Notes: generated by a model not told the origin, from the sequence alone. Counted from the first letter of the stretch, positions 3,937 through 4,998 are shown. The stretch: DNA of 64,000 nucleotides from Labilithrix sp. (GCA_046351255.1 JAXLYU010000014.1:187730-251729); one strand, 5' to 3'. Numbers and translations: made by a program.

Positions 3937-4998
3937 ATGAAGATGCGCAACACGGTGGCTGCGAGCGCGGTGCTTCTTCTCCTGGTCCTCGTCGCGTGCG
4001 GGAGCGACGGCGACGGCGATGGAGCGCCGGGCGTCCTACCCGACGGCGGGGCCGTGGATGGCGCGACGACGAGCAGCAGCGGGAGCTTGCCGGACGGTGG
4101 CGGTGCGCTGCCCGACGGCACGCCATGCGGCGCGGCCGGGCAAGCGTGCTGCACCGGGCGAACGTGCGGCGGCGCGAATCTCGTCTGCAATGGGAACATC
4201 TGCTCGCCGTGCGGCGAGCCTGGGCAGACGTGCTGTCCGCTCAACACGTGCAACGGCGGCGGCTGCTGCGTGAGCGCGGGTGGCGGTGGCGGCGGAGGTG
4301 CTGGCGGCCAGCGCATCTGCGTCGGCGCCTCGACCCAGTGCTCGATCAACAACGCGGCATGCGCGGCCGGTAGCTGTGGGACGTGCGGCGGCGCGGGTCA
4401 GGCGTGCTGCACGGGCGGGGGTGGCGGCGGCGGCGGCGGTGGCGGCGCTGCCGGCCAGTGCACCGCGCCGAACGTGAAGTGCGTCGGCAACTCGTGCGCG
4501 GCGTGCGGAGGCGCCGGCCAGACGTGCTGCGCGGGCGACTCCTGCCAGGGCGGCCTCGCCTGCGCGGAGGGGGCGTGCGTTCACTGCGGCGGCTCGGGCG
4601 AGCCGTGCTGCGACGGCGCGGACGCGTGCTCCGCGGGCCTCGGCTGCTCTCGCGATCGCTGTGCGCCGTGCGGCGCCGCGGGTCAGGCCTGCTGCGGGCG
4701 CGAGAACACGTGCAACGCGGGGCTCGGTTGCGATCGCGAGGTCTGCGGCGCGTGCGGCACCGCCGGTGCCGTGTGCTGCACGGGCAAGACGTGCGACCCC
4801 GGCCAGTCGTGCACCGCGTCCAATCGATGCGGGCAGTGCGGCGCCGCCGGTCAGGCGTGCTGCGCGGATCGAACGTGCACGGGCGCCGGCCTCGCGTGCC
4901 GCGAGGGGCTCTGCACCCAGTGCGGTGGGGCAGGTCAGGCCTGCTGCGCGGGCAACACCTGCACCGCGGGCACGTGTGACCGCGGGCTCTGCCGCTGA
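3937..4998 (+). CDS. Secreted cysteine-rich tandem-repeat protein, family A (~28-aa units, 6 Cys each)
   Basis: ATG at 3937 (MKMRNTVAASAVLLLLVLVACGSDG) gives a signal peptide with lipobox. It is followed by about 9 repeats of C-G-x-x-G-Q-x-C-C-x-G-x-x-C-x-x-G-L-x-C-x-x-x-x-C, with Gly-runs between some units. The upstream part of track ORF 3604..4998 is non-coding extension. Confidence 0.7.
   Translation: MKMRNTVAASAVLLLLVLVACGSDGDGDGAPGVLPDGGAVDGATTSSSGSLPDGGGALPDGTPCGAAGQACCTGRTCGGANLVCNGNICSPCGEPGQTCCPLNTCNGGGCCVSAGGGGGGGAGGQRICVGASTQCSINNAACAAGSCGTCGGAGQACCTGGGGGGGGGGGAAGQCTAPNVKCVGNSCAACGGAGQTCCAGDSCQGGLACAEGACVHCGGSGEPCCDGADACSAGLGCSRDRCAPCGAAGQACCGRENTCNAGLGCDREVCGACGTAGAVCCTGKTCDPGQSCTASNRCGQCGAAGQACCADRTCTGAGLACREGLCTQCGGAGQACCAGNTCTAGTCDRGLCR

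Follow-up and report, generated by a model that had tools for sequence, protein, structure and literature searches.

A 64,000-nucleotide window of Labilithrix sp. DNA (GCA_046351255.1 JAXLYU010000014.1:187730-251729) carries on its plus strand, at positions 3937-4998, a gene (hereafter gene A) that encodes a 353-amino acid, cysteine-rich repeat protein with a predicted lipoprotein signal. The repeat units of this protein, which start with the motif CGxxGQxCC, form a large family of predicted extracellular domains that is uncurated in the libraries we searched. We favor, with a probability of roughly 55%, a reading in which protein A is anchored by lipid and presents, on a tether, an extracellular array of nine disulfide-braced modules that serves multivalent binding or acts as a scaffold. 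According to this reading, the product of gene A would be exported and probably anchored by lipid in the envelope, and a flexible tether of ~40 amino acids would lead into a row of nine small modules rich in disulfides. Three disulfides (C1-C3, C2-C5, and C4-C6) would pin each canonical module (27-28 amino acids), while one module would be an elaborated version with 10 cysteines. The array would resist proteases and would bind or anchor to an extracellular partner (the cell surface, matrix, or a substrate) without performing catalysis.

The open reading frame (ORF) of gene A begins with ATG at 3937 and ends with TGA at 4996-4998 (353 codons by ORF call and translation). The window is ~71% GC throughout its 64 kb, and long ORFs occur in several frames over the DNA of gene A, including one at 4036-5037 on the minus strand, which raises the possibility that gene A is a spurious ORF opened by chance in GC-rich, low-complexity DNA. 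Long antisense ORFs are a usual by-product of high GC. However, the GC content at third codon positions (GC3) is 0.867 in the frame of gene A, the frame begins with a signal peptide, and hundreds of homologues with 30-55% identity keep the same Cys skeleton. Together with the confident fold prediction described below, these findings effectively refute the spurious-ORF explanation, and gene A is real. A scan for promoters and terminators around the gene returned nothing useful.

Protein A contains 59 Cys (16.7%), 87 Gly, and 53 Ala, together with a single His and no Trp, Tyr, or Phe. Its N-terminus (MKMRNTVAASAVLLLLVLVAC, followed by GSDG; nucleotides 3937-3999, plus strand) has a charged n-region, a hydrophobic core, and the lipobox L-V-A-C, and thus contains the three elements of a lipoprotein signal: a positive n-region, a hydrophobic h-region, and a lipobox of the form [LVI][ASTVI][GAS]C. 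Cys21 (nucleotides 3997-3999) is the predicted lipidated residue, and we infer from this signal that protein A is lipidated. The signal is followed by a low-complexity tether rich in Gly, Asp, Ser, and Pro (amino acids 22-63; nucleotides 4000-4125), within which the DNA contains a (GCGACG)2.7 repeat at 4004-4019. The 58 Cys that remain without the lipobox Cys are distributed as six in each of eight units and 10 in one, an even number that is consistent with 29 disulfides.

The initial annotation had described 3937-4998 as a Cys-rich repeat protein composed of CGxxGQxCC units, and this description holds. Nine units that start with CG..G..CC are present in protein A, at amino acids 64, 92, 150, 190, 217, 245, 273, 301, and 329. 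The motif CG..G[QE].CC appears eight times in protein A and 11 times in its paralogue, protein B (see below), as compared to a mean of 0.006 and a maximum of 1-2 in 20,000 composition-preserving shuffles; by this test, the units are more alike than their Cys/Gly composition would give. A looser unit-start motif occurs 23 times in a six-frame scan of the 64 kb, each time in frame in the ORFs of A and B. The autocorrelation of Cys in protein A peaks at a lag of 28 (0.43) and reaches 0.29 at a lag of 56. The reported unit length of 28 amino acids fits most but not all of the protein: seven units are 25-28 amino acids long with six Cys, one has 58 amino acids and 10 Cys, and one has 40 amino acids, a length that is due to a Gly insertion.

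Unit 1 is a short six-Cys module (amino acids 64-91; nucleotides 4126-4209). Unit 2 (amino acids 92-149; 4210-4383) is the long, 10-Cys module and carries the first of two Gly tracts in its CC-x(n)-C loop, whereas unit 3 (amino acids 150-189; 4384-4503) is a six-Cys module that carries the second tract in its C3-C4 loop; homologue alignments and AlphaFold models support the parse of both units. Units 4-9, six consecutive short modules of 25-28 amino acids (amino acids 190-353; 4504-4995), begin at nucleotides 4504, 4585, 4669, 4753, 4837, and 4921. The consensus of 381 units drawn from 60 proteins reads C-G-x2-G-Q-x-C-C-x4-C-x5-C-x4-C-x2, and units of 27-28 amino acids are the most common. The long module follows the pattern CGxxGQxCC-x4-C-x3-5-CC-x(n)-C-x6-C-x6-C-x4-C, with 60 instances in 28 of 198 proteins. 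The order of short unit, long module, and unit with a variable C3-C4 loop is common to protein A and to homologues that are 45-56% identical in this region.

The pattern in which Cys residues are lost during evolution points to their pairing. With 1211 units (273 proteins) aligned to a hidden Markov model of the unit, we followed co-loss across the six canonical Cys columns. All six Cys are kept in 1096 of these units. C1 and C3 are jointly lost in 31 units from 12 proteins (Fisher p 6e-48), and C3 is never lost alone. Similarly, C2 and C5 are jointly lost in 11 units from five proteins (p 7e-25), with each of them lost alone only once. No other pair of Cys is lost together among the 1211 units. 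Most of the apparent single losses of C4 and C6 seem to reflect a Cys shifted by a loop insertion or deletion; losses of C1 only are less clear, and in one homologue (P0002) the unit before carries an additional Cys that may make up for the loss. The paired losses argue for disulfide partners over metal ligands, and the data suggest the connectivity C1-C3, C2-C5, and, by elimination, C4-C6. A shifted, knottin-like frame that joins the last Cys of one unit to the next five was also considered and rejected: no Cys precedes the first unit, C6 closes the last one, and the Cys count is even in all units.

AlphaFold2 models of the units agree with a compact fold. For units 5-7 (amino acids 217-300), modeled with an alignment of 87 unit sequences, the mean predicted local distance difference test score (pLDDT) was 87 and the predicted template modeling score (pTM) was 0.65. 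Each unit in the model contains a β-hairpin at unit positions ~19-22 and 25-28, together with isolated bridges from the N-terminal loop. The long module and the unit that follows it (amino acids 92-189) gave a pLDDT of 81 and a pTM of 0.72; within the long module, values exceed 80-90 outside its Gly tract. The unit fold is thus confidently predicted to consist of an N-terminal loop packed on a two-stranded β-hairpin. A Foldseek search of PDB with the unit models returned nothing significant (E≥1.1).

The two Gly tracts are predicted to be disordered insertions that lie outside this fold, in two loops that tolerate changes in length. In the model of amino acids 92-189, pLDDT falls below 50 only at residues 25-30 and 71-78, which correspond to the two tracts. 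Tract 1 (amino acids 115-121; nucleotides 4279-4299) is a run of seven Gly encoded by GGT GGC GGT GGC GGC GGA GGT, and tract 2 (amino acids 160-170; nucleotides 4414-4446) is a run of 11 Gly encoded by GGC GGG GGT (GGC)5 GGT GGC GGC. Gly runs had been noted here previously, with lengths given as 8-12 residues and coding assigned to GGC and GGT; the pure runs are in fact 7 and 11, and GGG and GGA are used in addition to the two codons named. The longest pure codon run is (GGC)5 in tract 2, and no codon is repeated more than twice in succession in tract 1. The CC-x(n)-C loop that holds tract 1 has 16 amino acids in protein A, the longest seen, as opposed to four in 42 of 60 long modules. The C3-C4 loop that holds tract 2 also has 16 amino acids, which places it in the top 0.7%; the mode is four amino acids, found in 1169 of 2043 units. 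One homologue has an acidic repeat insertion of ~60 amino acids at the site of tract 2 in this loop. Because the tracts sit exactly in the two loops that vary in length among homologues, they are plausibly old expansions of GGN runs.

The family to which these units belong is large. A search with protein A identified 58 proteins at E≤1e-3, the best at 43% identity; nearly all of them are labeled hypothetical and lack Pfam domains. A search with protein B identified 100 proteins at E≤1e-10. The nearest relatives of gene A come from metagenome-assembled genomes of Polyangiaceae, Polyangiales, and other Myxococcota. We built a family profile from 87 three-unit fragments and searched it against 1.84e9 representatives of clusters formed at 50% identity, which yielded 2266 clusters at E≤1e-3, 700 at E≤1e-10, and 48 at E≤1e-30. 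The only names attached to these clusters are "hypothetical protein" and "choice-of-anchor A domain-containing protein". Members contain between 1 and 19 units. Their hosts appear to be mostly Myxococcota or Polyangiales-like bacteria, in which the module stands alone behind a signal peptide or is fused to other domains.

Curated libraries contain no model of the unit. Pfam-A and NCBIfam gave no match at E≤1 for protein A or protein B, and Pfam did not cover the repeat region in any of 20 multidomain relatives scanned singly. DUF7107 (PF23416; gathering threshold 24.6 bits) was matched by neither A nor B; it appeared below threshold in 11 of the 87 homologous fragments (best E 0.007), and Toxin_12 and Dickkopf_N appeared at E 0.3-0.6. 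A true match to DUF7107 (E 1.4e-10) in a GH5 cellulase of the family (P0069) falls outside the family-A units. These echoes reflect only a common hairpin signature, C-x2-G-x2-C-x2-G-x-C. Sequence searches of PDB, run once with a single protein and once with the profile, gave chance-level matches only (the Gly run of KIF3C, Dkk4, and CREMP, at E 0.4-1.2).

In a census of 61 multidomain family members, 10 have a Peptidase_S8 subtilase domain. The repeats lie C-terminal of this domain in one such protein (P0154), and the unit spans of other members with an N-terminal region of ~500 amino acids agree with this placement. Other partners among the 61 include M4 (thermolysin), M23, Trypsin_2, GH5 cellulase, GH35, RCC1 propellers, VWA, Laminin_G_3, CBM9_1, and an ice-binding-like adhesive domain. 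Homologues of protein B add PA14 with DUF4215 ("fibro-slime"), FG-GAP/VCBS, and Fibrinogen_C. Such variety of partners is typical of a promiscuous accessory module in extracellular proteins. Apart from the tether, the array constitutes the whole mature protein in A and B themselves. Because the array is terminal in A, B, and the subtilases, it is unlikely to serve as a pure spacer between an anchor and a head.

Gene B (12986-14827, plus strand) encodes a paralogue of 613 amino acids and was recognized by its ORF, a motif scan, and alignment. It starts 7988 nucleotides after the stop of gene A, with an alternative GTG start at 12980, and contains 103 Cys and 14 CG..CC unit starts. Its signal ends in AIGAPAC followed by GSS; this lipobox (G-A-P-A-C) is weaker than that of protein A and could instead be an A-x-A site for signal peptidase I. 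The best alignment of A with B shows 43% identity over 181 amino acids (E 1e-12), which marks them as true paralogues, although divergent, of one Cys-rich repeat family. The view that the family is multi-copy and divergent within this region was therefore correct, the two genes lying within 11 kb of each other. The best match to protein B, a 564-amino acid protein from a 14.8-kb ENA contig (P0028), consists of an N-terminal fragment of a dihydroorotase-like amidohydrolase fused to family-A units, and an amidohydrolase gene is present in the window at 7738-9291, between A and B. P0028 looks like a chimera of gene calling or assembly, and the amidohydrolase in the window is probably a coincidence.

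The initial annotation proposed further that the family diversifies rapidly, possibly through slippage visible in the poly-Gly tracts. In its full form, this proposal would make A and B members of a slippage-prone surface family in which units and poly-Gly are gained and lost quickly, in the manner of a contingency locus or antigenic variation. Several observations are in keeping with it: the presence of two paralogues within 11 kb and of a tandem pair in another genome (see below), the variation from 1 to 19 units among members, and the location of the Gly tracts in variable-length loops in which those of protein A are extreme outliers. In addition, a stretch of the B tether DNA at 13151-13236 contains a 15-nucleotide tandem repeat of 4.7 copies (13151-13221) that is 96% perfect and encodes (GASSS)n. 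This is the most slippage-prone sequence of either gene and a far better candidate than the poly-Gly of A.

The units themselves tell against rapid turnover. Pairs of 28-amino acid units share 29-61% amino acid and 49-70% nucleotide identity. At four-fold degenerate third bases of conserved codons, identity is 0.434 between units of A, 0.485 between units of B, and 0.478 between A and B (0.43-0.49 overall), whereas codon usage alone predicts 0.41-0.51; the synonymous sites are therefore saturated. Adjacent units are barely higher (0.55-0.57, from small counts). Amino acid identity between units is about the same within A (0.575) as between A and B (0.558). Taken together, saturation and the equivalence of A-A with A-B comparisons argue that there has been no recent unit duplication, gene conversion, intragenic homogenization, or concerted evolution. 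Units 5 and 6 (4585-4739; Tandem Repeats Finder period 84, 76% matches, 70% nucleotide identity) are the only pair that looks somewhat younger. Moreover, the order of modules is retained in the 45-56% identical homologues. The Gly tracts are broken by synonymous codons and are weak microsatellites in which any change in length would stay in frame; gene A has none of the long and perfect runs of a short repeat that are the hallmark of a contingency locus.

The units of gene A are old. Direct comparison with near relatives was limited by their scarcity: no protein in a 5.8-billion-sequence collection exceeds 43% identity to protein A, a genome collection contains no near-identical DNA and only relatives of 36-41% identity, and two exact-pattern scans of metagenomes, one with Gly-tract length left variable, found nothing. 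The claim of rapid diversification finds little support, and we regard the contingency-like explanation as distinctly improbable. As for slippage in poly-Gly, the tracts do occupy variable loops, but their codon runs are interrupted; the most likely reading is that of loops expanded long ago, plausibly by slippage at some time, whose repeats have since decayed by synonymous change. Gene A is an ordinary, anciently repeated member of its family rather than a hot spot of ongoing slippage.

What, then, does the array do? Its architecture and the fusions of its relatives point to a putative binding or scaffold function. Five points weigh against this assignment. The units are nearly free of aromatic residues (Trp, Tyr, and Phe make up 1.5% in the family and are absent from A), which makes classical stacking on carbohydrates less likely. 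The disulfide map derives from covariation. No gene neighborhood is conserved across the six homologue loci compared (L001, L006, L007, L009, L010, and L011), and we found no description of the CGxxGQxCC repeat in the literature on myxobacteria. Finally, the terminal position of the array disfavors a spacer, yet it leaves binding as a putative role. A more specific alternative is that the array resembles a carbohydrate-binding module (CBM) and recognizes cellulose, chitin, peptidoglycan, or an exopolysaccharide. Fusions to GH5 cellulase, GH35, M23 peptidoglycan peptidase, and CBM9_1 are in line with this idea, as are the location of one homologue downstream of glycosyltransferases and a weak look-alike, the hevein-type Ac-AMP2. 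Carbohydrate binding through hydrogen bonds would still be compatible with the near absence of aromatics. However, the missing aromatic platform, the lack of a match to any CBM model, and the predominance of proteases over glycosidases among the fusions make a CBM-like role fairly unlikely.

The repeated occurrence of the module on S8, M4, and trypsin-like peptidases raises another possibility, namely that small three-disulfide hairpin modules in tandem act as a multi-headed protease inhibitor or a toxin-like knottin array, a bacterial version of the secreted cysteine-rich repeat proteins (SCREPs), that shields the envelope or regulates the fused proteases. The top look-alikes, none of them significant, are spider inhibitor cystine knot toxins, the double-knot toxin, Toxin_12, and Dickkopf_N, all of which score no better than chance (Foldseek E≥1.1; hmm E≥0.33). 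No known knottin resembles the units significantly in structure or profile, and the Cys pairing that covariation implies (1-3, 2-5, 4-6) differs from that of the cystine knot (I-IV, II-V, III-VI). Beyond structural Gly and Gln, no residue resembling a reactive site is conserved. We consider this inhibitor role unlikely. High Cys content (17%) could also suggest extracytoplasmic sequestration of metal by thiolate ligands, as in metallothioneins, and some members carry the MopE "putative metal-binding motif" (PF11617) elsewhere in the chain. The export signal, in contrast, would deliver the protein to an oxidizing compartment, the loss of Cys is strictly pairwise, their number is even in every unit, AlphaFold predicts a compact β-hairpin fold without metal, and A has a single His, all of which render a metallothionein-like function highly improbable. 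A multivalent binding or scaffold array remains the reading we prefer.

The surroundings of the two genes differ. Gene A lies 94 nucleotides 3' of a same-strand cluster that encodes HlyD, an ABC ATPase, an ABC-2 permease, and TetR. Converging on it from the minus strand is a gene for a 351-amino acid lipoprotein (5048-6103) that matches no Pfam model and has two CxxCH motifs of the haem-binding type, CFRCH and CAHCH. The minus strand also encodes, between A and B, an 18-Cys lipoprotein (gene C; 9299-10000; signal ending in LLSATAC followed by GG) with no CGxxGQxCC motif and no match in Pfam or NCBIfam. Gene B is the third and last gene of a tight, translationally coupled trio that begins with an extracytoplasmic function (ECF) sigma factor (10996-11688, plus strand; Pfam Sigma70_r2/r4_2/ECF) and continues with a FecR-domain anti-sigma gene (11685-12989, plus strand; Pfam FecR). 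The sigma and FecR genes overlap stop to start at TTGA, and the FecR gene and gene B at ATGA. This arrangement suggests that B is regulated by, or is a partner of, the ECF sigma/FecR anti-sigma pair.

Elsewhere, homologues are found in varied settings. In L011 (3517-7281), the homologue P0245 lies three nucleotides downstream of a TPR/PEGA protein that itself follows a Ser/Thr kinase; together with the gene B trio, this raises occasional coupling to transmembrane signaling proteins as a lead rather than a finding. The homologue in L009 follows glycosyltransferases and asparagine synthase, and those in L001, L006, and L007 occupy unrelated neighborhoods. In L010 (4226-7878 of a 386-kb metagenome contig), P0225 (604 amino acids) and P0218 (625 amino acids) are in tandem with overlapping ends, which indicates that local, multi-copy clustering of the family recurs in other genomes.

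Two other observations concern the window. Lipoprotein-like ORFs at 40475-41101 and 40989-41393, both on the minus strand and without a match in Pfam, contain a different Cys-rich repeat of ~40 amino acids, C.P.TCA.LG..CG...DGCGG...CG.C. The GH5 cellulase P0069 combines this second module with family-A units, so the two module types are used together elsewhere. Also on the minus strand, a cyanophycin synthetase-like gene (17977-20787; 936 amino acids) is followed by a Mur-ligase-like gene (16304-17839; 511 amino acids), and the pair (16304-20787) looks like a CphA plus CphA2-type arrangement.

Comparison with known systems places the array among tandem Cys-rich proteins without assigning it to any of them. 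The stalk of TraA, the kin-recognition receptor, contains the Myxococcus cysteine-rich repeat TIGR02232/DUF4215 (PMC3325183, PMC6626042). In both families, Cys-rich repeats stand in tandem in surface proteins that myxobacteria export, and some homologues of A carry DUF4215 as well. Neither A nor B matches the models for TIGR02232 or DUF4215 (PF13948) at E≤1, the consensus of that repeat lacks CGxxGQxCC, and A and B lack the variable head domain of TraA and a recognized C-terminal sorting tag. CREMP, an avian eggshell membrane protein (PDB 9pgb), consists of four-Cys modules with disulfides 1-3/2-4 in an extended, beads-on-a-string arrangement (PMC12723725). As depicted there, it shares with protein A long tandem arrays of tiny modules in which an N-terminal loop covers a small β-hairpin, and the proposed C2-C5/C4-C6 pair would have its 1-3/2-4 topology. 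By the same account, CREMP has four rather than six Cys per module and is eukaryotic and fiber-forming, and its sequence relation to A is at chance level (E 1.2).

SCREPs such as the double-knot toxin are mostly animal venom peptides with two knottin domains (PMC6262176, PMC9885460). They resemble A in joining a signal peptide to tandem, independently folded, disulfide-rich domains that confer multivalency, but here there are 9-14 modules in a bacterial lipoprotein, the predicted connectivity is not that of a knot, and structural matches are not significant. Protein A does have the elements of SCREP-type architecture (a signal peptide, nine modules, and confidently modeled units), which is an architectural class and not a homologous family. 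The Dickkopf N-terminal domain, DUF7107, and Toxin_12 share the hairpin signature given above; their matches fall below curated thresholds, and none occurs in A itself. Hevein contains eight Cys and requires a Ser and three aromatic residues for binding. Hevein/CBM18 domains are also small, Cys-rich modules with a CG start and a CC pair that are often in tandem and fused to hydrolases, whereas A has no aromatics, a six-Cys unit, and no match to PF00187.

In animals, small tandem modules rich in disulfides are familiar from venom SCREPs, from EGF and TNFR-type repeats, and from CREMP; to our knowledge, their bacterial counterparts are poorly catalogued. One might speculate, tentatively, that the CGxxGQxCC unit is an undescribed, promiscuous mini-domain of bacteria, rich in disulfides, that has a connectivity and possibly a fold of its own, and that the stand-alone arrays A and B are multivalent surface receptors or partners in envelope signaling rather than passive structure. 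If so, Myxococcota and other environmental bacteria would use this module thousands of times. For protein engineering, the module would offer a scaffold that is compact and probably very stable. The biology is in itself not surprising, and the use of these results lies in annotation and as a lead for domain discovery. The family appears repeatedly on proteases and glycosidases that predatory or degradative bacteria secrete, and its definition would improve the annotation of many proteins now called hypothetical.

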